The notes: generated by a model not told the origin, from the sequence alone. Counted from the stretch's first letter, positions 17,828 through 40,528 are shown. The stretch is 64,000 bases of DNA from an uncultured Pseudomonadota bacterium (GCA_903844155.1 CAIMSU010000162.1:70845-134844), one strand, 5' to 3'. Translations and numbers: made by a program.

Positions 17828-18694
17828 ATGTTCGTCTGTCCCCGCACCCGAGGTCCGCTCCAGGGATGGCGTTCTGTGGACGCGGGCATCGTCTACCCGG
17901 TCGTCGATGGCGTCCCCGTGCTGGTTCCAGACCCGCGCGGCCTCCTGATGCAGACCTCGGTACGCGGCCTCAGCAGCGCCCAGATGGCGCGCGTGGACGC
18001 CCCCGACGCCGTTACCCCGCACCTCCCTTTCGGCCTCCTCGGCGCCCCCGGTTCATTCGGCCAGTGGCTCTCCGCCGTCGGAGACGATGGCCCGGACGCG
18101 GCGTGCGCCGGATTCGCGGCCGACTACGCCCCGGACGGCCCCGCCGTGGATGTTGGATGCGGCCTCGCTCCGATGGCGCGGCGCATGGTCGGTCTCGGGC
18201 GCGAGGCGTGGGCGTTTGACCTCTCGCTCGACAGCGTGCTCATCGCGAAAGGCGTGCTGTCCGGGGCGCTGCCAGTCGTGCAGATTCCGACGCACCGAAA
18301 CGGACTGCGTGCGGTCAAGGTGCCGTTTCGCCCGGTCACCGACGTCAACTACGCGGTGGCGGACGCCGCAACGCCGCCCTTCCCGCGCGCATCGTTCGCC
18401 TGGGTGCACCTCGGCGATGTGCTCGACAGCACCGGGGATCGCCACCGCGAGGTCCTGTACGGCGCGGCCGATCTGGTGCAGCCTGGCGGCATCCTGACCG
18501 TCTCGTCCTCCTTCGGGATGCTCGATCAGCCCGCGGAAGGCCGGCCGCCGCCCGAGGATGCCCTGCTGGACGAGATCGGGGAGATGGGGTTTGAGATCGT
18601 CGGCCGGTCGGACCGCGTCCCGCACGTTCGACGGGTCTACGACCGCCGCTTTGAGGTTCGGATGTTCTTCTGCGTCGGGGCCCTTCGGCCCTGA
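17828..18694 (+). CDS. Trm112-like zinc-ribbon N-terminus fused to a class I SAM-dependent methyltransferase
   Basis: [10 protein letters not shown]...[11 protein letters not shown] is the Trm112-like part. VDVGCGLAP is a SAM-binding motif I. Confidence 0.7.
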
Positions 18695-18709
18695 TGCCGA
18701 CGCGGGCGG

Positions 18710-21700
18710 CTACCCCCGCGCGATCACCCGCCTCAACGCCGCGCCCGTCGCGCTTGCTGATGACGCCGCGACCACCTCGGGCGTGCCGCTGGCGACGATG
18801 CGCCCGCCGTCCGGCCCCGCGCCCGGCCCCATGTCGATGACGAAGTCGGCGTGCCGGATCACGTCCACGTGGTGCTCGACGACGATGACCGTGTGCCCCT
18901 TCTCCACGAGGTGATCGATCACCGTCACCAACCGGGCGACGTCCGAGAGGTGCAGCCCCGTGGTCGGCTCGTCGAGGACGTAGAGCGTGGGCTGGGCACG
19001 ATCAGCAAGCCCCAACGCCAGCTTCACGCGCTGTGCCTCACCGCCCGAAAGGTCGGTCGCCGGTTGGCCGAGCCGGACGTAGCCGAGCCCGACCGCTGAG
19101 AGCCCCTCCAGCGCGCGCTTGATCGCCTTGTGCTGCGCGAACAGCTCCACGGCGTCGTCCACGCGCATGTCGAGCACGTCCGCGATCGAGAGGCCCTTCC
19201 AGCGCGCCTCCAGCGTCTCCGGCGAGAACCGGCGCCCGTGGCAGGTCTCGCACTTCACCCAGACATTCGACAAAAAATGCATCTCGACCTGCTCAGAGCC
19301 GTACCCACCGCAAACGGTGCACGCCCCTGCGCCGCCGTTGCTGCTGAAGTGGCTGTGGGTCCAGCCCCGTTCGCGCGCGAGCGGCGTCTGCGCGTAGAGC
19401 TTGCGGAGCGGGTCCATGACGCCGACGTAGGTCGCCGCTGACGATCGCGGGCTGCGGCCGATCGGCGACTGGTCGATGACCTGGAGCTGCAGCGGGCCGG
19501 TCGCGAGCGACGGCAGGGTGACGTCGACCGGTCGCGCCTCGCCTTGCAGCTTGCCGACCATCAAGTCCAGGATGAGCGTGCTCTTTCCCGAACCGCTCAC
19601 GCCCGTGACGACCGTCAACGCGCCGGTTGGGATGTCCACCCCAACGCCAACGAGCGAGTGGCGTGTGGCCCCGCGGATCTGGATGGGCGGCCCGCCCGTT
19701 CTGCGCGTTGCAGGCAGCGGGATGAAGCGCTCGCCCGAGAGCCACGGGCCCGTGACGCTCGTGGGCCCGAGCGCCAGCGGTGGGCCTGCCGCCACCACCT
19801 GGCCGCCCCGCTCGCCGGCCTCCGGGCCGAGGTCGATGACGTGGTCCGCGCGCCGGATGGTCTCGGGGTCGTGCTCGACGATGACGAGCGTGTTGTCGAG
19901 CGCGCGCAGGCCCTCCAGCGTGTCGAGCAGGCGGTCGGTGTCGCAGGGATGCAGGCCGACAGTTGGCTCGTCGAGGACGTAGATGACGCCGGTCAGGCCG
20001 CCGCCAAGCTGCGTTGCGAGGCGGATCCGCTGCGCTTCGCCGCCGGAGACCGTGTTCCCGCCGCGATCGAGGGAGAGGTAGCCCACGCCGACGTCGTCGA
20101 GAAAGCCGAGCCGGGCGCGGATCTCGCGGAGCGGCTGGGCGGCGATGAGGGCGGCTTCGGGCGCGAGGGCGAGGTTGTCGAACCAGGCGCGCGCCTCCCG
20201 GATCGTCTTCGCGGAGACAGCGTGCAGGCCGAGGGGCGGGGACGAGCCGGGCCCGGAGTCAACGGCGCTGCCGAACGTGACGGCCATGATCTCGGCTTTC
20301 AGGCGTCCGCCGAGGCACTTCTTGCAGTGCCAGAGCTGACCCTTGATCTCGATGCGCCCCATGCCGTCGCACGTGGAGCAGGCGCCGAGGTAGTGGTTGA
20401 AGCTGAAATGCCGGGGTGTGAGGACGGTTTTATGGATGAGGCCATGGTCGGGGCAGCGGGCGAGCGCCGAGAGCGCGATGGCCGGTTCGGTGGGTCGCTT
20501 CCCGCCGGCGCCGCGCGGCTGAAAGCGTGCCTGGTTCGCCCCGTATCGGTAGGCCGTGGTGATTGCCTCGACGACCCGGCTGCGCTCGACGGTCGCCGGG
20601 TCCAGCCGGTCGATCACCAGCGTCGAGACCTTCGGCTGGTCGGTCAGCTCGTAGTCGCCCGTTCGGCCGTCGTAGCCCCTTGCGAAGCCGGCTTTTCGCA
20701 GGTCCTCGGCAGGGGCTGGCTCGGCGAGGGGGCAGAGCAGCCAGCCGACGCCCGGCGATTGGCTGACGAGGAATTCGGCGGCCTGAACCGGCGGTCGCGC
20801 GTGAATCTCGACGCCGCAGGTCGGGCAGTGCGGAACCCCGAGGTTGGCCCACAACAGGCGGAAGTGGTCCTGCAGCTCCGTGATGGTCGCGACCGTGCTG
20901 CGTCCGCTCCCGCCCGACGTGCGCTGGTCGATCGCGATGGCCGGCGCGAGCCCGGTGATGCTGTCGATGGGCGCGCGCTCCAGGCGCCCGAGGAACCGGC
21001 GCGCGTACGTCGACAGGCTCTCGACATAGCGGCGTTGTCCCTCGGCAAAAATCGTGTCGAACGCGAGGGAGGTCTTTCCAGACCCGGAAGGCCCGGTGAT
21101 GACCGTCATCTTTCCGCGCGGGATCCGCACATCCACGCTGCGCAGGTTGTGGCAGCGCGCGCCCTTGATGACGAGGTCGTGGCTGGCGGCGTACACCGGC
21201 CGGATCCGCGGCTCGTGGAGGAACGACGTCGGCTTTCCACCGAATTCGGGCAACGCGGCGAGTACCCGGCCCGTGGGCGTGTCCGTCTTCGCGATCGCGC
21301 GCGGGGGCCCGGCCGCGAGGATCCGCCCGCCTGCAACGCCCCCTTCCGGCCCAACCTCCACAATGTAGTCCGCGATCTTGACCAGATCGCTGTTGTGCTC
21401 GATCACCAGCACGGTGTTCCCAGCGTCCACCAGGAGCTGGATCGCGTCGATCAGCACGCGAACATCGGCAAAGTGCAGGCCCGTGGTCGGCTCGTCCAGG
21501 AGGTACACGGTGTTGCCGGTCGCGGGGCGTTGCAGCTCGGTCGCCAGCTTGAGGCGCTGCGCCTCGCCGCCTGAGAGCGTCGTCGCGGTCTGGCCGAGCG
21601 TGAGGTAGCCGAGGCCGACCTGGTCGAGGGTTGCGAGGACGCGGTGGATCTTCTGGTGGTTCGTCCAGAAGCCCACGGCCTCGTGGATCTGCATCTCCAG

Positions 21701-23806
21701 CACGTCCGCGATGGACTTGCCCCGGTAGAGGATCTCCAGGGTCTGCGCGTTGAATCGCCGGGTGGCGCAGGTCTCGCACGGGACTTCGACGTCTGCCAGA
21801 AAATGCATCGCGATCGTCCGCACGCCCGCGCCTTCGCAGGCATCGCAGCGACCGCCCTTCACGTTGAAGCTGAATTGCCCCTTCTTGTAGCCCCGCGCCT
21901 TGCTCTCCGGCAGGTTGGTGTAGAGGTCCCGGATCAGGTCCCAGACCCCCGAATAGGTGCCCGGGTTGGACCGCGGCGTGCGCCCGATGGGCGTCTGCGC
22001 GATCTCGATCACCTTGTCCGGCACCTGCGCGCCTTCGGGACCGACGAGCGTCATCGTGCCGCAGTCCGCCGTCGCCCGGCCCTCCAGGTGCGCATGGAGG
22101 ACGTCAAAGAGCAGGGTGGACTTGCCGGATCCGGACACGCCCGTGAACACTGTGAGGCACCCGAGCGGGATCTCCAGCGCATCGCCCCGCAGGTTGTGGA
22201 CCTTCGCCCCGACCACCCGCAACACGCCGCGGCCGACCGTTTTGGCGCTGCGAAGCTGCTTCGGCAGTGGGATCACGTCCTCGTCGCGCAGGTGCCGGGC
22301 CGTTGGCGAGTCGACGGTCAGGAAGGTGGACGGCGGCCCCGACGCCATCAGCCAGCCGCCCCGAATTCCCGCGCCCGGCCCGATGTCGACGAGGTGATCG
22401 GCCATCTCCATCGTCTCGCGGTCGTGCTCGACGATGAGCAGCGTGTTCCCCTGGTCGCGGAGCACGCCCAGCGCGAGGAGCAGGCGGCGATTATCGCGGG
22501 GATGGAGGCCGATGCTCGGCTCGTCGAGCACGTACGTCACTCCTTGCAATCCGCTCCCCACGCACGCCGCGAGCCGGATGCGCTGCGCCTCGCCGCCCGA
22601 GAGCGTGTTCGCGCGCCGGTCGAGCGTCAGGTAGCCGAGCCCGACCTCGTCCAGAAAACGCATCCGGTCGCTGATCTCCTTGATGATGCCTTCGCCGAGC
22701 AGGATCTCCGGGCCGGCGAGCGTGACGGACGAGAAGAAGCGGTTGGCGTCCTGCACGCTCATGCTCGCCGCGTCGTCGATGTGCTTGCCGCGGAACTCGA
22801 CCGCCAGCGCTACGGCGTTGAGCCTGCGGCCGTCGCAATCGGGGCAGGTCCGGCGCTGCTCGGGCGGGGTGTCGGAGGCTGCTGGGACGGTGAGGCCGCG
22901 CATCGCCACGACCTGCCCGATGCCGTTGCAGGTGGGGCAGGCCCCCTGCGGCGCGTTGAACGAGAACAGCCGAGGTTCAAGCTCCGGGATCGAGATGCCG
23001 TGCTCGGGACAGGCGCGGTCGACGGCGTGCACCGAGTAGTGTTCCGGACGGGCGCCGACGGCCGGGACCAGCAGCGCGACGACCCCGTCCGCCAGCCTGA
23101 GGGCCCGCTCCACCGACTCAACGAGCCGCGCGCGGTCCTGGTGCAGGCAGACAAGCCGGTCGATGACCAGCTCGATCGTATGCTTTTCGTACCGGGCGAT
23201 CTCGAGCGGCTCCTCGATGCGCTTGATCTCGCCGTCCACGCGCGCGCGAAGCCATCCTGCCTTCTGCCATTGCTCCCATTCTTCGCGGTATTCGCCCTTC
23301 CGGTCGCGCACCATCGGCGCGAGGACGAGGATGCGCTCGCCCTCGTGGTCGCGCAGCCAGCGATCCGCCAGTTCCCCAGGGCTCTGGCGGGTGATCGTCC
23401 GGTTGCACTTCGGGCAGTGGGGCGTGCCGAGCCGGGCGAAGAGCAGACGCAGGTGGTCGTAGACCTCGGTCACCGTCCCGACCGTCGACCGCGGGTTCCG
23501 GTTCACCGTCTTCTGGTCGATGGAGAGCGTTGGCGAGAGGCCCGTGACGCGGTCGACCTTCGGGCGCTCCATCTGCCCGAGGAACTGGCGTGCGTACGGC
23601 GACAGCGACTCCATGAACCGCCGCTGGCCCTCCTGGTAGATCGTGTCAAACGCCAAGGACGACTTGCCCGACCCGGAGACACCCGTGATGACGACGAGCG
23701 AATCCCGTGGGAGATCGAGCGAAAAGCCGCGGAGGTTGTGCTCGCGGGCGTTCTCGACGTGGAGGGTGTGGCTCGCGCCGGAGGTCGGGGCGGGGTGGTC
23801 GGCCAT
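18710..23806 (-). CDS. Tandem double UvrA-like protein (two UvrA modules, four ABC ATPase domains)
   Basis: There are four Walker A motifs ([36 protein letters not shown]) and four signatures (LSGGEAQR three times, VSGGEAQR once). Each module has UvrA zinc modules of CxxC type. The second module starts near [16 protein letters not shown], at about nt 21180. Confidence 0.9.
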
Positions 23807-23838
23807 GACGCCGTCGCGGTAACGCGGGCCCGGTCCGC

Positions 23839-23855
23839 TTGCACATCTGTTCAGT
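23839..23855. promoter_or_regulatory. LexA-box-like motif (Myxococcus type) in the divergent intergenic region
   Basis: ttgcacatctGTTCAGt matches 15 of 17 positions of the M. xanthus LexA box as I recall it (CTRHAMRYBYGTTCAGS). It lies 33-49 nt upstream of the UvrA-like start. Confidence 0.35.
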
Positions 23856-23929
23856 ACGTTTTTTCACCCGCGCCCCAACCGCGCTGGCGCCCGCGATTTC
23901 CGGTATAGTGCGACGGTCGGGAGCTCCGC

Positions 23930-25639
23930 ATGGCCGGTCAACAGCGTCAGTCTGTCTCCACCTCGGCCCCCGCCGTCGCCCCGGATGTGGGCGACAAGGA
24001 CGTTGCACCTGCCGTTACGCAGGCGCGCGGGAACGACGCCGCTCAGGCTGGCCTCCCCGGCGGGCAGGGCGACAAGGAGGGCGGTGCCGACGGCGGCGCG
24101 GCGCCCGATGCCGGCCTGGCGAACTACGAGTCGGCGCTCGGCGAATTCCTCGGCAGTGAGCTGTACAAGGCCATCGGGCCGCAGCTGTCCTACGAGAAGC
24201 TGTCCGGCGTCGCGAAGAAGGGCGTTGACGGCGCGCTGGACGCCATCGCCAAGCAGATCGGCAGCCTGGACAAGGGCACCGTCGACCCCAAAGTCGTCGA
24301 GACGCTTGGCGCGTTGCTGAAGGACTCCCTCGATCCGCTCGTCGACGTGTGGCTCGCGAAGAACGGCGCGGGGCTCTCTGCGGGGCTGACGAAGTGGGTG
24401 GGCGCGCACCCGCGCACGATCGTCCTCACAGCGCTGCTCGCTGCCGCCGGGGCCATCATAGCCAACGTCGGAATTCCGACGTTGAAGCAGAAGTTCTCGC
24501 TCGGGAAGGGGCTCTCGGCAGAGGTCGAGGCCAACCTCGGCAAGATCCGCGCGCTCTCGCTCCAAAGCGTGCGGGCCAAGCTCACTTACGAGAGTGGTCC
24601 GCTGCTCGCGGCCGTCTCCGCCGGGCACGACGAGAAGGGCAACACGGCGGAGCTGCACGCCACGCTGGCCGGCCAGGGCAAATCGCTGAAGGCAGACGCC
24701 GTCGCGGACAGCAAGGGCCTGACATTCGCCGGCTTGAACGGGGTGATTGACACGGGCATCGGCGAGGTGACGGCCGGTGTCAACGAGAAACGGGGCGAGG
24801 GGACGGTCGCCGGCGTGAAGCTCAAGCGGGTGAACGGGAAGACGACCGACACGACGGACTTCGACTACAATGCTTCAACCGGCATCTTCTCCCTCGGCCT
24901 CGGCAGCGTCTACGACGACAGCGGCCTGACCGTCGACAAGCAGTCGAAGCTCAATAGCGACGGCACCGGCAGCATCTCCGAGACCGTCGCCAGCCAGCAG
25001 ACCTCCGGCGGCGTCACGCGCGGCGGCTCCATCGGCGTCTCGCACGAGTCGATCAAGACGCCATTCGGCATGACGCAGACGGACAAGCTCAAGCTCGGCC
25101 TGAATTATTCCCGCGAGGACCTCAAGGCGAAGCTCGACGCCGCCTTCGCGAGCGACGGGAACAACGCGGTCTCCGGCTCGGCCAGCAAGATCGACGGAAA
25201 CCTGACGTACGGGGCGGACTTCAACCTCAAAACCGGCAGCGACAAGCTCTGGGAGGTCGGCGGGTTCTATGGCTTCAAGTCCAAGGACGAGTTCCGAAGC
25301 TACATCCTCGATTACCGCTACAAGTCCAACATCGACCAGAGCAAATTCGGCCTGCTCGTCGAGCAGGAATTCAAGGGGACCTACCTGCGCTGGCAGTCGG
25401 CGATGACCTGGGGCGGGCAGAACAGCTCGGTGCTCGACACGTCGCTCCAGGCCGCGCGCCCGATCAACGAGAACACCTCGCTCATCGCCGGCGCGCACTA
25501 CCAGAAGGACTTCGGGACAGGCCAGAACACAATCAACCCGCAGATCGGCGTGCAGTACAAGGGCATTCCGGTGGTCGCGGAGTACAACACGCAGAACCAC
25601 GGCGTCATGTTGAGCATCACGATCCCGTTCGGGAGGTAG
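23930..25639 (+). CDS. Hypothetical 569-aa protein with a helical N-terminal half, one hydrophobic segment and a beta-rich C-terminal half
   Basis: GGGAG lies 8 nt upstream of the ATG, and a TATAGT box lies at 23904-23909. There is no N-terminal signal peptide. The hydrophobic stretch is IVLTALLAAAGAIIANVGI. The C-terminal half is rich in K/N/S/T/Y/G with alternating patterns. I recognise no family. Confidence 0.75.
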   Translation: MAGQQRQSVSTSAPAVAPDVGDKDVAPAVTQARGNDAAQAGLPGGQGDKEGGADGGAAPDAGLANYESALGEFLGSELYKAIGPQLSYEKLSGVAKKGVDGALDAIAKQIGSLDKGTVDPKVVETLGALLKDSLDPLVDVWLAKNGAGLSAGLTKWVGAHPRTIVLTALLAAAGAIIANVGIPTLKQKFSLGKGLSAEVEANLGKIRALSLQSVRAKLTYESGPLLAAVSAGHDEKGNTAELHATLAGQGKSLKADAVADSKGLTFAGLNGVIDTGIGEVTAGVNEKRGEGTVAGVKLKRVNGKTTDTTDFDYNASTGIFSLGLGSVYDDSGLTVDKQSKLNSDGTGSISETVASQQTSGGVTRGGSIGVSHESIKTPFGMTQTDKLKLGLNYSREDLKAKLDAAFASDGNNAVSGSASKIDGNLTYGADFNLKTGSDKLWEVGGFYGFKSKDEFRSYILDYRYKSNIDQSKFGLLVEQEFKGTYLRWQSAMTWGGQNSSVLDTSLQAARPINENTSLIAGAHYQKDFGTGQNTINPQIGVQYKGIPVVAEYNTQNHGVMLSITIPFGR

Positions 25640-25666: not shown

Positions 25667-27594
<1,928 letters not shown>

Positions 27595-27598
<4 letters not shown>

Positions 27599-34630: not shown

Positions 34631-37519
34631 CTAGTCAAACAACGCGGCGATCTCGTCCCGACCGAGCGCCGACGCCAGCGCCGCATCGTCCAGCGCTGCT
34701 GCGGCGAGCAGGCGCTTGCGAGCTTGTAGCTCCATGATCCGCTCCTCGACGGTGCCTTCGGCGACGATGCGGGTCGCCACGACGGGGCGGGTCTGGCCGA
34801 TGCGGTGGGCGCGGTCGGTAGCTTGATCCTCGACGGCGGGGTTCCACCACGGATCCATGAGAAAAACGTAGTCCGCAGCAACGAGATTCAGGCCGGTGCC
34901 ACCGGCCGTCAGCGACAGGAGGAACACCGGCGGCCCGTCCGGGGACTGGAATTCGGCGACGACGGCCGCGCGATCGACCGTGCTGCCGTCCAGGCGGACG
35001 TAGCGAATTCCCCGTGCCTCAAGCTCGGGTTCGATGAGGTCCAGCATCGACGTCCACTGGCTGAACACAAGCGCCTTGTGGCCGTCGCCGACCTCGTCGC
35101 CGGACCCGTCCCCGATCCCGAGATCGTCCAACTCCTCCATCAGCAAATCGACCTTCGCGCTGCTCTTCGCCGTTCGGCCCGGCAAAAGCCCGCTATGGCA
35201 GGCCGCCTGCCGCATCCGCAGCAGCACCTCCAGCACCTGCAGCGTGCGTCCGCCGCCGAGCATCTTCGCGACGTCTGCCCGCGTCAGCGAGCGCACCGAC
35301 TCGTAGATCGCCCGCTCCTCGGCCGACAACGTGCACCGGACAACGCGGTCGGTGCGCTGCGGGAGATCCTTTGCCACATTGATCTTCAGGCGGCGCAGGA
35401 CGAACGGGCGCACCCGACGGCGCAGGTCGTCACGCGCCCGCCGGCTGCCGTTGGCGATGGGCGTGCCGAAGCGGTCGCGAAACGCGGTGCGACCGCCGAG
35501 CAGCCCGGGTTGGACGCAGTGAAAAAGCGACCACAGCTCGTCCAGACGGTTCTCCACGGGCGTGCCGGTGACCGCAAGCTTCAGCGTGGCCGGCGTGCGA
35601 CAAGCCGCCTCCGCAGCCTGCGAATCCGGGTTCTTCATCGCCTGCGCCTCGTCCAGGATCAAGGTCGACCATGTGCGCGCCCCGAGCGCCTCCGCGTCCA
35701 GGCGCAGGAGCGCCCAGGTCGTGACCGTGAGGTCGGCGGCGGGGTCGAGGGCACGCTTTGGCCCGTGGTAGACGTTGACGGTGAGGGAGGGCGCGAACTT
35801 CGCAGCCTCGCTCGCCCAGTTCCGGAGCACGGACGTTGGTGCGACGACCAGGGCGGGGCCGAGCGGCCGCCGGGTGAGCAGCAGCGCGAGGCACTGAATC
35901 GTCTTCCCGAGCCCCATGTCGTCGGCGAGCACACCCCCGGAGGTCGTCGCGCCGAGGCTGCCGAGCCAGGCGAGCCAGTCCAGACCGCGCTGCTGGTAGG
36001 GCCGCAGGGCGCCGACGAAGCCCGGGTGGAGTGGAGCGGCGGGGACGGCATCAAAGTCGCCTGCGAGGGCCTTGAGGGCCGAGAGCGCGGGCGGGATGGG
36101 GAGGGCGAGGGCGTCTGCGGCGTCGAGGAGGACGGCGGCGCGGTCGCGGCGGACGGTGCCGTCGGCGTCGCGCGCGTCGAGGAGCTCGGCGAGGAGCGGG
36201 CCATAGCGGTCCAGCCATTCGCGCGGGACGGGCCGGAACCCGCCTTCGAGGAGCGGAACGAGCGAAATGTGGTCCTGCCATGCGGACAGCAGCGCGCTCG
36301 GGTCGGCGCCGGCGGTGTCGATGGCGACGGCGAAGCTGCTGCCGTCACCGCTGGCGTTGATGGCGATTGCGGGGTCGCCGGCCGCGCGTTCGATGCGGAA
36401 CTGCGGTGCTTTGGTGAGGATCATCGACCGTATCTGCGGCTTGAGCCCCTCCACCCACCGCGCCGCCTCTGTGCCGACGCGAGCGGTGCCCGACCCCGGT
36501 GCAAGCCGCATCTCGCCGAGCTCAGCCTCCAGCCGGCGTTCCGCGACGAGGTCGCGCGCAGGCAGGTCGCCGGTGAGGCGGACCAGTGTCCCGCGTTGCA
36601 GGCGCGCGATCGGCGGATCGCCGTACACGATCCAGGGCGTGACGGCGAGCGCGCAGCCCGCCCCGTAGCTCCCGGACGCCGTGACCTCCCACTCCAGCCG
36701 CGGCGGCACCGTCACCACCTTCGGCAGCTTTGCCGAGCGCCGCTCGACCGGCACGAGCTTTTCCAGCCGCGGGAGAAAGCGTGTCAGCAGCTCCTCGGCG
36801 TCCGTCGCCCGGTACAGGATGCCGCTGTTGAGGCGGTTTTTCAGCTCGACGTCCAGTCCGCCATCCGTGAACGGGCGCAGGACCGTCCCCATCCGGACCA
36901 CGCCGTTGCGAAAAGCTTCGTCGATCCCCGGCGCGCGCACGAGGCGGACCTTCCAGCCCCCGTCGTGATCCTCGACCAGCGCTCGCGGAACGACCGGCTC
37001 CCCGTCCGCGGTCACCGGGGCGCCGTCGAGCGTGACGTCCAGCCCCTTCAGCGCGGCGAGCACGTTCTGGAGGACGACCCGGGGCACGATGGGCGAGCCC
37101 TCGCCCGCCCGCTGCCCGTCGCCGCTGGTCAGCCACTCGCGCGCGACGCGCTGCACCAGCTTGTCGTCGTCCGTCCAGACGGCGTCGGCCGGTGCTCGGG
37201 CCGAGAGCCGTAAGCCCTCGGGGCTGCGGGTGAGGCGCCACTGCACCCGGCCTGCCGCTCGCTGGGTGAACCGACCGGCGGCCCGGGCGATGGCGACGGC
37301 GCCAAAATGCACGCAGCCGGGGCTCTCGCAGGTGCAGTACCAGTCGGCATCGCCGGGCCACAGCGTGACCTCCCAGGGGGCTGCGCGGGGTGGCACGCGC
37401 ACAAACCACGTCTCCTCGGTGGCCGTGCGCTTGCCGAGGCTGACGGCGTCGCCGTTGGCGAGGGCTTCTGCGCGCTCCCACTGGCCAGGCGGGACGACGC
37501 GGCGGGCTTTTTCAAGCAT
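34631..37519 (-). CDS. SNF2-family helicase with an N-terminal SWIM zinc finger
   Basis: The SWIM finger is WYCTCESPGCVHFGAV. SNF2 motifs are DDMGLGKTIQ, LILDEAQAMKN and GGTGLNLVAADYVFLMDPWWNPAVEDQATDRAHRIGQ. The start overlaps the upstream gene by 8 nt. Confidence 0.92.
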   Translation of the reverse strand: MLEKARRVVPPGQWERAEALANGDAVSLGKRTATEETWFVRVPPRAAPWEVTLWPGDADWYCTCESPGCVHFGAVAIARAAGRFTQRAAGRVQWRLTRSPEGLRLSARAPADAVWTDDDKLVQRVAREWLTSGDGQRAGEGSPIVPRVVLQNVLAALKGLDVTLDGAPVTADGEPVVPRALVEDHDGGWKVRLVRAPGIDEAFRNGVVRMGTVLRPFTDGGLDVELKNRLNSGILYRATDAEELLTRFLPRLEKLVPVERRSAKLPKVVTVPPRLEWEVTASGSYGAGCALAVTPWIVYGDPPIARLQRGTLVRLTGDLPARDLVAERRLEAELGEMRLAPGSGTARVGTEAARWVEGLKPQIRSMILTKAPQFRIERAAGDPAIAINASGDGSSFAVAIDTAGADPSALLSAWQDHISLVPLLEGGFRPVPREWLDRYGPLLAELLDARDADGTVRRDRAAVLLDAADALALPIPPALSALKALAGDFDAVPAAPLHPGFVGALRPYQQRGLDWLAWLGSLGATTSGGVLADDMGLGKTIQCLALLLTRRPLGPALVVAPTSVLRNWASEAAKFAPSLTVNVYHGPKRALDPAADLTVTTWALLRLDAEALGARTWSTLILDEAQAMKNPDSQAAEAACRTPATLKLAVTGTPVENRLDELWSLFHCVQPGLLGGRTAFRDRFGTPIANGSRRARDDLRRRVRPFVLRRLKINVAKDLPQRTDRVVRCTLSAEERAIYESVRSLTRADVAKMLGGGRTLQVLEVLLRMRQAACHSGLLPGRTAKSSAKVDLLMEELDDLGIGDGSGDEVGDGHKALVFSQWTSMLDLIEPELEARGIRYVRLDGSTVDRAAVVAEFQSPDGPPVFLLSLTAGGTGLNLVAADYVFLMDPWWNPAVEDQATDRAHRIGQTRPVVATRIVAEGTVEERIMELQARKRLLAAAALDDAALASALGRDEIAALFD

Positions 37520-39068
37520 TCGACGTGGGCGTTCCCGCCTCGACCGTCAGCGGTGGCGTCCGGTGCGACTCGACGAGCAACCAGACGCCCATCACCACGG
37601 CATAGCCAAGCAACAACCAGGCGGTTCCGCCGATGAGGTAGACGCGGTGGTCGGGGTAGGTGACCTCGGAGTGGTTCGTGAACAACTCGATGCCCGCGAG
37701 CATCGCCAGACCTGCTGTGTGCCGCGTGCGCGACTCCCCAACGTCTGGCTTCACGAGGCCCGCGGCGTGCGCCACCCAGAGCGTCCAACGGGCGATGTAG
37801 TAGTAGTAGCTCGCGGTCGTCAGCAGGAAGAACGGGATGAATCCGTAGGCAAACACCTCTTCGTCGCGGCGCTTTCGCAGGCCCCAGCCCATCACCAGCA
37901 TCACGATGCCCGAGATCGCGTACCGGAGCGGCTTCTGGTGCTCGATGACCTCCTTCTCGGCCGTCGTGATGTTCTTGGGGAGCAGGTCGCCGCGGAACGG
38001 CAGAGCGAGCGCCAGCCCGATCCGGCGCGACGACAGGTTCTCCGACTTGTTGTGGTCCTCCATGTTGTCGTAGTGCGTCCGGACGATCTCCGGCCCGAAG
38101 TACAGCGTGGCCGCGCCCTGGAACACGGCGATGCCAAGGCAGAAGCCGGCGAGGAGCTTGAGCGCCGGCTGGTGGACCTTTCGCTCCAGCAGCCCGAATA
38201 CACCCTTCGCCCCCGGCCCGTACAGCCACATCGCCGGGAACATGCGCAGCGTCGTCGACCAGCCGGTCAGGAACCCGCCGAGGATCGGTCGCCCCTTCCG
38301 CACGCACGCCATGGCGATCACCAGCAGCGACACGTAGTCGTAGCGGTTGAACGCCCACGTGATCGTCGGCCAGCGCGTGGAATAGCTGACCATCAGGAAA
38401 AGCGCGGCCCAGAGCGCGGTGGTCCCGTCCCACGCCCACATCACCGCCCCGATCGCGGCGCCGAGCCACACGAGATCGAGGTAGCCGAGCGTCTTGATGT
38501 ACTCGACGGGGAGCTGCGCGAAGGGGAGCGACTGCAGCACCCACACCGTCGTGCCGTTGAAGCCGTGGTCCTGGATGAGCTGCTTCCACAGCTCGTCGTT
38601 CATGCCCTCCACATCCCGCTGCAGGTACAGAAAATCGTGGGTGAACGCCTTCCAGCGCTCGGGCGTGAACTTCGTGTCCCGGACCTGTCTTCCCTCGTCC
38701 AGCGCGACGGAGATCGGCGCCAGGTGGTGACCGTCGTCGTCCTGGTCCATGAACTTGTCGCCCTCATGGAACCTTGGGCCGCCGTTCTCGTGATCTGCGA
38801 GGATGCACGCCGGGTAGAGGTCGTAGTAGCCGAGCTCGTCGTAGTATTTCGTGTTCAGGTAGTAGTGGATCAGGTCATAGGTGTCGACCTGCCGAAAAGG
38901 CAGTTTGAAGCCGAAACGACAGTAGTCGAGGACGCCAAATGCGAGCAGGAGGACGAGGATGCCGCGGGCGACGCGCGGGTGCAGCAATGTCCAGGCGATC
39001 GCGAGCAGGACAGCGCCACCGCAGAGCCAGAACTTCCACGTCTCTGAGAGGCTGCGGGAGATGTCCAT
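37512..39068 (-). CDS. Polytopic membrane protein, unknown family (possibly a GT-C-like glycosyltransferase or polymerase)
   Basis: The start was trimmed to MDISRS at 39068, 2 nt after the GT2 stop. There are at least 10 hydrophobic helices. The protein is rich in Tyr/Lys/Phe and the gene is visibly less GC-rich than its neighbours. Confidence 0.7.
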   Translation of the reverse strand: MDISRSLSETWKFWLCGGAVLLAIAWTLLHPRVARGILVLLLAFGVLDYCRFGFKLPFRQVDTYDLIHYYLNTKYYDELGYYDLYPACILADHENGGPRFHEGDKFMDQDDDGHHLAPISVALDEGRQVRDTKFTPERWKAFTHDFLYLQRDVEGMNDELWKQLIQDHGFNGTTVWVLQSLPFAQLPVEYIKTLGYLDLVWLGAAIGAVMWAWDGTTALWAALFLMVSYSTRWPTITWAFNRYDYVSLLVIAMACVRKGRPILGGFLTGWSTTLRMFPAMWLYGPGAKGVFGLLERKVHQPALKLLAGFCLGIAVFQGAATLYFGPEIVRTHYDNMEDHNKSENLSSRRIGLALALPFRGDLLPKNITTAEKEVIEHQKPLRYAISGIVMLVMGWGLRKRRDEEVFAYGFIPFFLLTTASYYYYIARWTLWVAHAAGLVKPDVGESRTRHTAGLAMLAGIELFTNHSEVTYPDHRVYLIGGTAWLLLGYAVVMGVWLLVESHRTPPLTVEAGTPTSNA

Positions 39069-39070
39069 CG

Positions 39071-40528
39071 TTACTTTCCGGCCAGCGCGGCGGTGTCGAT
39101 CGAGGGGGCGGTGGCCGAGAGGTGACCCGCGCGGGCGACGAGCGCCCCGGCCGGAATCGACAAACGTAGCGCTGCCACCCAGCCGTACCCGCCGCCGAAG
39201 AGGAGGAGGAAGGGGACCGTGGCACAATGTGACGACGCGACCGCCCAGGCCGCCACGCCGAGGTTCAACGCCGCGAGCACCGCCTCCACGGGCAGACGGG
39301 ACACGGGGAGCGCGTAGCTGCCGATGCCGCCGCCGTTCTTGGGGGTTCGCACGAATTCGCCTCGCCCGCCGAAGAGCCCCTCAAACGTCGCGGCGGCTTG
39401 CGAGGGGCCGATGCCGATGCCGAGCGCCAGGACGCGCGGGAGGTCGCGCCACCGGGCCCCGCCCGCCCGGTAGAAGCCGGCGTTGGTGAGCAGCGAAAAC
39501 CCGACGAGCGGCAGGTCCAGCGCCAGGTGTCCCAGCGACGCCGACCCGCGCAGGGCCACGACCAGCGGCAGCAACACGCCGACAAGCACGCAAAGCGGCC
39601 AGGCGAGGTTCCCTGTCAGGTGCGCGGTCGCCTCGGCCTTCACGCGCAGGGGGATGGGCGCCCGCCAGATTCGTGGCAGCAGCTTCTTCGCGGTCTGGAT
39701 GCTGCCCCGGGCCCATCGGCGTTGCTGGGCGAGGAACGCGGCGATCGTGTCGGGGACCTCCGCAGGCACCGCGCCGTCCGAAAGGTAGAGGAAGCGCTCG
39801 CCTGCCAACAGCGCCCGGTAGGACAAGTCGAGGTCCTCCGTCAACGTGTCGTGCTGCCAGCCGCCGGATCGGATGATCGCCTCGCGCTGCCAGACGCCCG
39901 CAGTGCCATTGAAGTTGAACCATGCGCCCATCGCTTGCCGGGCGGGCTGTTCCACGACAAAGTGCCCGTCGAGCAACGCCGCCTGGCTGCGGGTGAGCGC
40001 GTTCGCATCGCGATTGAGGTGGGCCCAGGCGACCTGCACCATGCTGTACCCGGCGAGGAGGTGGGGGACGGTGCGTTCGAGAAAGTCGGGTGGTGGGACA
40101 AAGTCCGCGTCGAAGATGGCGATGAGCTCGCCCTGCGCCTGGCCAAGTCCGGCGGCCAGCGCCCCAGCCTTGTAGCCGACCCGACCGCTTCGGCGCACGA
40201 CCTCGGCAGTGATCCCGCGCTCCCGGGCGCGGCGGATCGCGGGGCTGGCCGCGCGGCCAGTGTCGTCCGTCGAGTCGTCGAGGAGCTGGATTTCAAGCCG
40301 GTCGGCTGGCCAGCGCAGCGCGGCGACGCTGTCCACGAGCCGCTCCACGACGTCGCGCTCGTTGTAGACGGGGAGCTGCACCGTGACGAACGGGTAGCGC
40401 GTGAGCGGCGGGCTGACGGGGTCGGCGAGCCGCCGCCGGAATGCCCAGCCGAGCACGAGGCGGTGCGCTCCGTGGACGGCCAATAGGGCGACCACGACGA
40501 GATAGCAGCGGTAGACCACCTCGGTCAT
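39071..40528 (-). CDS. Processive family-2 glycosyltransferase (cellulose/mannan-synthase-like)
   Basis: Motifs VQLPVYNE, LLDDSTDDT, FDADF, TEDLDLS and QQRRWARGS (QxxRW) are present, with flanking TM helices. Confidence 0.88.
   Translation of the reverse strand: MTEVVYRCYLVVVALLAVHGAHRLVLGWAFRRRLADPVSPPLTRYPFVTVQLPVYNERDVVERLVDSVAALRWPADRLEIQLLDDSTDDTGRAASPAIRRARERGITAEVVRRSGRVGYKAGALAAGLGQAQGELIAIFDADFVPPPDFLERTVPHLLAGYSMVQVAWAHLNRDANALTRSQAALLDGHFVVEQPARQAMGAWFNFNGTAGVWQREAIIRSGGWQHDTLTEDLDLSYRALLAGERFLYLSDGAVPAEVPDTIAAFLAQQRRWARGSIQTAKKLLPRIWRAPIPLRVKAEATAHLTGNLAWPLCVLVGVLLPLVVALRGSASLGHLALDLPLVGFSLLTNAGFYRAGGARWRDLPRVLALGIGIGPSQAAATFEGLFGGRGEFVRTPKNGGGIGSYALPVSRLPVEAVLAALNLGVAAWAVASSHCATVPFLLLFGGGYGWVAALRLSIPAGALVARAGHLSATAPSIDTAALAGK

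Follow-up and report, generated by a model that had tools for sequence, protein, structure and literature searches.

Class II UvrA proteins lack the zinc module Zn1 and the UvrB-binding domain and keep the insertion domain (PMC9328131, PMC5128194), and UvrA-like ATPases of this class can act outside canonical nucleotide excision repair (NER; PMC9328131). The insertion domain corresponds to residues 290–411 in M. tuberculosis UvrA (PMC3167621). For C. thermocellum UvrA the residues of the dimer interface that also probe DNA have been listed as R54, Y55, S58, Y62, A63, Q65, F66, L67 and G80–I85, and F755 is the counterpart of the phenylalanine discussed below at the tip of the Zn3 hairpin (PMC12796330). 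A UvrA of about double length is known from Chlamydia trachomatis, where uvrA (CT333) has 5361 bp, codes for 1786 aa and occurs in addition to a separate uvrB gene (PMC6686042); apart from this recorded length, no paper discussing a tandem UvrA architecture was found in the literature searched. The gene considered here codes for a protein of this kind and lies in a stretch of 64,000 nucleotides from an uncultured Pseudomonadota bacterium (GCA_903844155.1, CAIMSU010000162.1:70845-134844), which is called the window below.

A preliminary description of the locus, made from the sequence alone, presented the product as a covalent, asymmetric tandem of two UvrA modules with four ATP-binding cassette (ABC) domains. 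This structural reading holds, with an intact UvrB-binding domain in module 1 only. The insertion domain (~115–120 aa) is missing from both modules. The protein is interpreted here as a covalent, asymmetric UvrA pseudo-dimer that serves as the damage sensor of NER in a freshwater Myxococcota-like bacterium, an interpretation to which somewhat better than even chances are given.

Two class I-type units in one reading frame

The single uninterrupted open reading frame (ORF) that had been reported, with its two modules, four Walker A motifs, four ABC signatures and paired zinc modules, is confirmed (Table 1). Walker A motifs are found at aa 42 and 556 in module 1 and at aa 905 and 1402 in module 2, the signatures at aa 402 and 744 (both LSGGE) and at aa 1253 (VSGGE) and 1586 (LSGGE), and the Walker B motifs at aa 425 and 768 and at aa 1276 and 1609, respectively. 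Across 55 double-length UvrAs (doubles), the Walker A, signature, Walker B and H-loop residues of all four ATPase sites show little or no variation. The CxxC pairs lie at aa 131, 290, 321, 654 and 677 in module 1 and at aa 994, 1143, 1161, 1496 and 1519 in module 2; ligands of Zn1, Zn2 and Zn3 are present in both, and both retain the Phe at the tip of the Zn3 beta-hairpin (MHF at aa 667 and aa 1509).

Both modules are of class I type by profile and by structure in the comparison with canonical and class II UvrA suggested in the preliminary description. The whole protein reaches 2013 bits with the NCBIfam model NF001503 and 1963 bits with TIGR00630, both matches being split into four stretches. 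Taken by half, module 1 has 1105 bits and module 2 has 864 bits with TIGR00630, both above its cut-off of 729.8; with NF001503 they have 1126 and 893 bits, both below the equivalog cut-off of 1147, module 1 by a small margin. AlphaFold2, run with a 55-sequence alignment on each module separately, produced models with a predicted local distance difference test (pLDDT) score of 90.5 and a predicted template modelling (pTM) score of 0.82 for module 1, and 89.9 and 0.84 for module 2. In Foldseek searches of the PDB the best matches of module 1 were 2r6f_A (TMq 0.85) and 3uwx_A (TMq 0.84), and those of module 2 were 3uwx_A and 2r6f_A (TMq 0.84). The class II structures UvrA2 (2VF7) and Ecm16 (7SH1) reached TMq 0.66–0.70. 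The core-only constructs 6N9L and 3UX8 reached TMq 0.59–0.68 (0.59–0.67 for module 2) and align to both modules at TMt 0.87–0.91. In the core, module 1 is 56% and module 2 51% identical to the canonical B. stearothermophilus (Bst) and M. tuberculosis (Mtb) proteins, and identity between the two module types is ~49%. A class II (drug-resistance) identity was considered and rejected on domain architecture and on TMq values of 0.66–0.70 vs 0.84–0.85 for class I.

The fusion recurs in several collections. Five contigs in NCBI and ENA, of up to 228 kb, carry the identical 1698-aa protein (P0001); one of them, scaffold_27 of the ENA metagenome assembly ERZ18667900, is recorded in two samples. Four Walker A motifs in one ORF were found in 119 of the 120 top homologues listed, drawn from NCBI, ENA, JGI and Logan assemblies, and orthologues in five GTDB metagenome-assembled genomes (MAGs) are continuous over query residues 2–1695 at 67–84% identity. 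The GC content at third codon positions is 0.90 throughout the ORF, typical for genes of this window of ~69% GC. It had been suggested that a stop codon near nt 21200 would betray an assembly fusion; neither a stop codon nor a frameshift is found there, and the linker is in frame. The source is a metagenome assembly, and a merger of two adjacent uvrA genes by sequencing error, or a decaying pseudogene, might be suspected on that account; but with an identical protein on separate contigs and in two samples, the same ORF in homologues from independent assemblies, uninterrupted orthologues, invariant catalytic motifs at every site and an even third-position GC, either explanation is extremely improbable.

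Accessory domains and the dimer interface

Alignment to class I structures passes over the insertion domain in both modules. Residues 15–302 of module 1 correspond to 9gxk 26–308 and residues 320–849 to 9gxk 427–956, with 9gxk 309–426 skipped, and module 2 residues 26–304 correspond to 2r6f 21–305 and 312–848 to 2r6f 424–958, with 2r6f 306–423 skipped. In each alignment the ~118 reference residues passed over make up the insertion (DNA-binding) domain. The Zn2 half-sites that flank this position are spaced by 23 aa in module 1 and by 10 aa in module 2, vs 116–128 aa in relatives with the domain and 105–128 aa when all doubles of the ID/ID and ID/no-ID types (defined below) are taken together. 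The preliminary description, which had put the segment at ~12–25 aa and both insertion domains down as missing, was correct on this point, and the structural alignments, which could have revealed the domains, show them to be absent. In the model of module 1 the remaining Zn2 mini-module forms a beta-hairpin (E298-302/E305-308) and has block mean pLDDT values of 84–94. The Pfam family PF17755 (UvrA_DNA-bind) is absent among the 25 families listed for the window protein and from the precomputed lists of the identical protein P0001 and of the close homologues P0002–P0031; it is present in the lists of most longer doubles.

The UvrB-binding domains of the two modules differ. A full UvrB-binding-like segment had been noted in module 1, and the match to PF17760, which covers model positions 1–105 of 109, bears it out with 118.9 bits. 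Residues R169, K170, G171, Y173, R187, R189, H209, E212, D216 and R217 of this domain are invariant among the 55 doubles. The first four belong to an RKGEY motif that is lost in module 2, where the segment, earlier described as shortened and divergent, is indeed ~10 aa shorter and matches PF17760 with 16.4 bits, below the cut-off of 23.3 and over the last third of the model only. Module 2 nevertheless keeps a UvrB-binding-type fold, because its match to class I structures equals that of module 1 and because the block mean pLDDT of the segment is 92–97. Among doubles devoid of both insertion domains, mean identity is 51% in this region and 64% in the module 1 domain, so the module 2 region is constrained, although less than a real UvrB-binding domain.

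Interface residues of the C. thermocellum type, as compared with the published list (PMC12796330), are present in the ATP-binding-I domains of both modules. The position equivalent to Y55 (window protein aa 64 and 927) is Phe in 90 of 101 module 1s and Tyr in 97 of 101 module 2s, and that equivalent to Q65 (aa 74 and 937) is Gln in every one of the 101 module 1s and Arg in every one of the 101 module 2s. Such positions face their own copies in a homodimer; a fixed difference between the modules fits a dedicated interface of module 1 with module 2.

Descent and distribution of double UvrAs

The 119 close homologues were graded from their Zn2 spacing as keeping (ID) or lacking (no-ID) the insertion domain in modules 1 and 2. 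The no-ID/no-ID grade has 28 members of 1531–1714 aa, the ID/no-ID grade 13 members of 1767–1812 aa and the ID/ID grade 69 members of 1862–2010 aa; two further sequences of the first grade and seven of the last have one spacing that is unmeasurable. A linker motif LP[E/D][F/L]G recurs in all three grades, and outside this motif the linker is poorly conserved, with 38% mean pairwise identity in the no-ID/no-ID group.

A neighbour-joining tree was built from 783 core columns with the modules separated, midpoint rooting and two outgroups (Bst and Mtb UvrA). Every module 1 groups with canonical Bst and Mtb UvrA in a single clade, and the module 2s all belong to a second clade. The no-ID/no-ID doubles (30 sequences including the window protein) are monophyletic in both module trees, and this subclade branches from within doubles in which one insertion domain or both are kept; a phylogeny of tandem forms, as recommended in the preliminary description, unites them in one group. 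The ID/no-ID doubles are not monophyletic, which suggests that the insertion domain was lost from module 2 more than once. The simplest history, offered provisionally from these trees, would comprise one old fusion for the whole set, repeated losses in module 2 and one loss in module 1 in the lineage of the window protein.

Named relatives come from freshwater MAGs, for example 'Myxococcales bacterium Baikal-deep-G128' and lake bins called 'uncultured proteobacterium', and some homologues are labelled Myxococcota or Deltaproteobacteria. The labels of two records look wrong: L003 (CALQBK020000029.1), filed as 'Bifidobacterium breve', has a double UvrA 83% identical to that of the window and the same neighbours, and L005 (CAYWGD010000016.1), filed as 'uncultured Enterobacteriaceae bacterium', has one 67% identical.

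The wider distribution was surveyed by an HMMER scan of 1.84 billion cluster representatives (50% identity) with module 1 alone as the query. The best 150 representatives are all longer than canonical UvrA, and 133 of them have at least 1400 aa, in a search dominated by doubles since the scores of two modules add up, so that single UvrAs without an insertion domain would not surface. A few matches of 1044–1431 aa with continuous alignment look like truncated doubles. A 99-aa query around the Zn2 mini-module, aimed at single UvrAs devoid of the insertion domain, returned 30 short fragments and missed the query's own protein as well.

Several architectures were distinguished by a motif survey of representatives P0156–P0304. 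Two class I-type halves may both carry the insertion domain (~1860–1960 aa), or the domain may be in the first half only (~1750–1830 aa) or in the second half only (e.g., P0168, P0194 and P0232). Doubles of class II + class II type (~1570–1680 aa) have no UvrB-binding domain and an insertion domain in both halves, and combinations of class I with class II also occur. At three Planctomycetota MAG loci (L007–L009) the doubles have 1933–2078 aa and an insertion domain in each half; their linker, longer and rich in Lys and Pro, lacks the LPEFGG motif, and these doubles may stem from an independent fusion. Named homologues are annotated as 'excinuclease ABC subunit A/UvrA' or 'UvrABC system protein A'. 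The rarity implied by the preliminary description is not upheld, as doubles fill the best 150 representatives in many architectures and the chlamydial double was already known. The tandem UvrA fusion is widespread and unstudied, and the no-ID/no-ID form is a variant at the level of a clade.

A candidate LexA box upstream of the gene

The 123-bp divergent intergenic region in front of the gene (23807–23929) contains an SOS-box-like motif, given as TACTGAACAGATGTGC (23839–23856). The candidate box matches the SOS box CTRHAMRYBYGTTCAGS, a consensus from a different myxobacterium, M. xanthus, in 15 of 17 positions (PMC9705874), and it is the sole match to this consensus in the window at two mismatches or fewer. 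The block TACTGAACAnnTGTGC is the only conserved one in the otherwise unalignable upstream regions of the five orthologous loci L002–L006; it is unique in the window, where 0.08 matches are expected by chance. As a phylogenetic footprint, the block is compatible with control by LexA and does not prove it. A scan of 18500–24100 gave no sigma-70-like promoter, and terminator-like matches there were at chance level.

Proposed mechanism and alternatives

In the proposed mechanism, modules 1 and 2 would pair through the ATP-binding-I interface like UvrA2 protomers and form a permanent heterotypic 'dimer'. DNA would be bound along the signature domains II, with the Zn3 hairpins and a Y/Q(R)/F element as probes and without an insertion-domain clamp. 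The UvrB-binding domain of module 1 and the signature domain II of module 2 would jointly recruit a single UvrB, giving a complex of the type A-A'·B rather than A2B2; one intact arm plus the module 2 signature II could be enough to dock one UvrB. Expression is probably damage-inducible through the LexA-type box. The fusion would make dimerisation independent of concentration and may in this way have permitted the losses of insertion domains, the repeated ones in module 2 and the single one in module 1 of this clade. Wagner, Moolenaar and Goosen reportedly found in 2011 that removal of the insertion domain leaves E. coli UvrA able to discriminate damage and makes its binding to DNA less stable; if that result holds, a permanent dimer could plausibly compensate for the loss. 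A bolder version is put forward tentatively: the fusion might render the clamp dispensable altogether, leaving a minimal sensor that would recognise lesions by its signature-II surface, its Zn3 hairpins and an asymmetric Q/R-F probe alone, would load exactly one UvrB through the one intact arm, and would be the sole UvrA of the cell. The activity, the UvrB loading and the intramolecular pairing of the double UvrA are predictions from sequence and from the models of single modules.

Several points weigh against the pseudo-dimer as NER sensor. Recent cryo-EM work has the insertion domains clamp DNA or recognise the lesion, and their complete loss could mean altered or reduced sensing. The AlphaFold2 models cover each module by itself, and in a UvrA2-like arrangement a 23-aa linker would have to bridge the C-terminus of module 1 and the N-terminus of module 2. 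Should a canonical uvrA coexist in the genome, the double may be an auxiliary paralogue. As to regulation, a match to the SOS consensus with two mismatches is expected 1.66 times in a window of this size and is not significant alone, no SOS-box match is found upstream of the class C locus L012, and the uvrA of M. xanthus has been reported to lack an SOS box (PMC9705874).

An auxiliary role beside a canonical uvrA is the main alternative. The double could serve in tolerance of adducts or intercalators, in Mfd-dependent transcription-coupled repair, or in a UvrB-independent activity like those of Ecm16 and DrrC. Bacteria often carry extra UvrA paralogues, whose roles are unclear or lie in drug resistance (PMC9328131, PMC5128194). 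The loss of both insertion domains together with the degenerate UvrB-binding domain of module 2 shows that canonical constraints are relaxed, and the genome may hold a canonical uvrA elsewhere. Myxobacteria are, moreover, rich in secondary metabolites. Neither module, however, has the class II architecture, as Zn1 and a UvrB-binding-type domain are present and the insertion domain is absent, and the UvrB-binding domain of module 1 is strongly conserved. No biosynthetic or resistance cluster lies in the 64 kb of the window; the double is surrounded by housekeeping genes, in an order shared with close relatives only, and the LexA-like box is in keeping with a general response to damage. Architecture and context make a drug-resistance role of the class II kind unlikely, and the specialised roles proposed in the preliminary description (drug tolerance, UvrB-independent activity) find no support in modules of class I type with a conserved UvrB-binding domain and no biosynthetic cluster nearby. 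An ordinary role in NER is at least as likely as a specialised one, given the class I match, the conservation of the UvrB-binding domain, the missing cluster and the LexA-like footprint, and the auxiliary paralogue as a whole is regarded as possible yet distinctly less probable than the covalent pseudo-dimer of NER. If the double were a mere paralogue beside a canonical uvrA, the result would amount to a modest refinement of annotation.

The modules might instead find their partners on another chain, so that doubles would form dimers or a higher-order assembly, with eight ATPase sites. Interface residues are intact in both modules, which makes intermolecular pairing chemically possible, and the linker is short (~23 aa). 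The Phe/Tyr and Gln/Arg differences between modules in ~90–100% of 101 doubles speak against this arrangement, weakly, since they would fit 1:2 pairing across chains too, and a permanent dimer would more readily explain why insertion domains were lost repeatedly and only after fusion. Assembly from two chains is accordingly thought improbable, well behind an auxiliary paralogue.

The covalent pseudo-dimer bears on a debate in bacterial NER, where cryo-EM papers disagree on whether the insertion domains clamp DNA or hold a flipped base; it is also argued whether the working complex holds one or two UvrB. In a natural UvrA with no insertion domain and one intact UvrB arm the 'protomers' can be mutated independently, which is impossible in a homodimer, and a natural asymmetric UvrA could thus help to separate the roles of the protomers, of the insertion domains and of UvrB stoichiometry. 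Double-length UvrAs are, in addition, a large and architecturally varied group that is annotated as plain 'UvrA'.

Genomic context

Table 1. Position of the double-UvrA gene, its parts and the upstream box in the window
Feature	Position (nt)	Strand	Remarks
Double-UvrA ORF, including stop codon	18710..23806	-	ATG start, 1698 aa, without internal stop
Module 1 (aa 1-852)	21251..23806	-	class I-type UvrA unit without insertion domain
Module 1 UvrB-binding domain (aa 141-245)	23072..23386	-	PF17760, 118.9 bits, E = 1.2e-34
Module 1 Zn2 mini-module (aa 290-328)	22823..22939	-	C290/C293 and C321/C324, 23-aa loop at the insertion-domain site
Inter-module linker (aa ~853-875)	21182..21250	-	in frame, without stop codon
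Module 2 (aa 876-1698)	18713..21181	-	more divergent UvrA unit without insertion domain
Module 2 UvrB-binding-domain-like segment (aa ~998-1118)	20453..20815	-	fold kept, sequence degenerate
Module 2 Zn2 mini-module (aa 1143-1169)	20300..20380	-	C1143/C1146 and C1161/C1164, 10-aa loop
Candidate LexA (SOS) box	23839..23855		33-49 nt upstream of ATG; ACTGAACAGATGTGCAA on gene strand

The window also codes for an ABC ATPase, a malate/lactate dehydrogenase, an amino-acid kinase, a two-component pair, a methyltransferase, ClpB, a PLD-type enzyme, an SNF2 helicase, glycosyltransferases, a dihydroorotate dehydrogenase, a signal peptidase and others. Neither uvrB, uvrC, mfd and lexA nor a canonical uvrA was found within the 64 kb. 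The gene order hyp569 / uvrA / HK-RR-TPR-AA kinase (histidine kinase, response regulator, tetratricopeptide-repeat protein, amino-acid kinase) is common only to relatives of at least 80% identity and is not found in L005; this synteny, confined to close relatives, was rejected as a sign that the double uvrA and its neighbours are functionally linked. Two long ORFs lie antisense to the uvrA gene, one of 754 aa (21644–23908, +) and one of 676 aa (19544–21574, +). Both fail the codon-position GC filter and were discarded as spurious, of the sort usual in a genome of 70% GC.

Some neighbours are of interest in their own right. The divergent gene at 23930–25639 (+), which would share the SOS-like box, codes for a 569-aa protein with no Pfam or NCBIfam match, an Ala/Gly/Asp-rich N-terminal region and a Gly/Ser/Thr/Lys-rich C-terminal half; it adjoins the double uvrA in L002, L003 and L006 at 68–72% identity. 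A 643-aa protein with FG-GAP repeats and four MopE-type Cu-binding motifs is encoded at 25667–27598 (+) and is absent at the orthologous position in L002–L006. The SNF2-family helicase (34631–37519, -) has 962 aa, of which ~500 N-terminal residues are without a domain match. Just upstream of it, with an overlap of 8 nt, a 571-aa ORF with no family match (37512–39227, -) may form a two-gene unit with the helicase.

Comparison with known systems

The class I UvrAs of B. stearothermophilus (2R6F, 3UWX), C. thermocellum (9GXK) and M. tuberculosis (3ZQJ) share with the window protein the tandem-ABC core and the Zn1–Zn3 ligands. Each module further resembles them in its Zn3 hairpin with the tip Phe and in its ATP-binding-I interface residues, and module 1 also in a bona fide UvrB-binding domain. 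Whereas class I UvrA is a non-covalent homodimer, the window protein has two such units fused in one chain; in contrast to class I UvrA, neither unit has an insertion domain, and the second UvrB-binding domain is degenerate.

Class II UvrAs (D. radiodurans UvrA2, 2VF7; Ecm16, 7SH1; DrrC) have in common with the window protein a reduced set of accessory domains, but the reduction follows the opposite pattern, as class II proteins keep the insertion domain and lack Zn1 and the UvrB-binding domain. Absence of the insertion domain is shared with T. maritima UvrA d117-399 (6N9L) and with the Bst UvrA core (3UX8). These are laboratory constructs also devoid of the UvrB-binding domain, whereas the window protein is natural and conserved and keeps a UvrB-binding domain.

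Among proteins of double length, the chlamydial UvrA (CT333; NF001885/PRK00635) is likewise a single ORF of about twice the UvrA length. The chlamydial-type model NF001885 (1809 positions) scores the window protein at 1155.6 bits, far from its cut-off of 3054, and the protein is thus not a member of that equivalog. The other doubles of Myxococcota, 'Deltaproteobacteria' and alphaproteobacterial MAGs, of ID/ID (~1860–2010 aa) and ID/no-ID (~1770–1810 aa) type, have the same fusion and module order, the LP[E/D][F/L]G linker motif and the Phe/Tyr and Gln/Arg asymmetries between modules. These doubles keep one or both insertion domains, whereas the subclade of the window protein has lost both.

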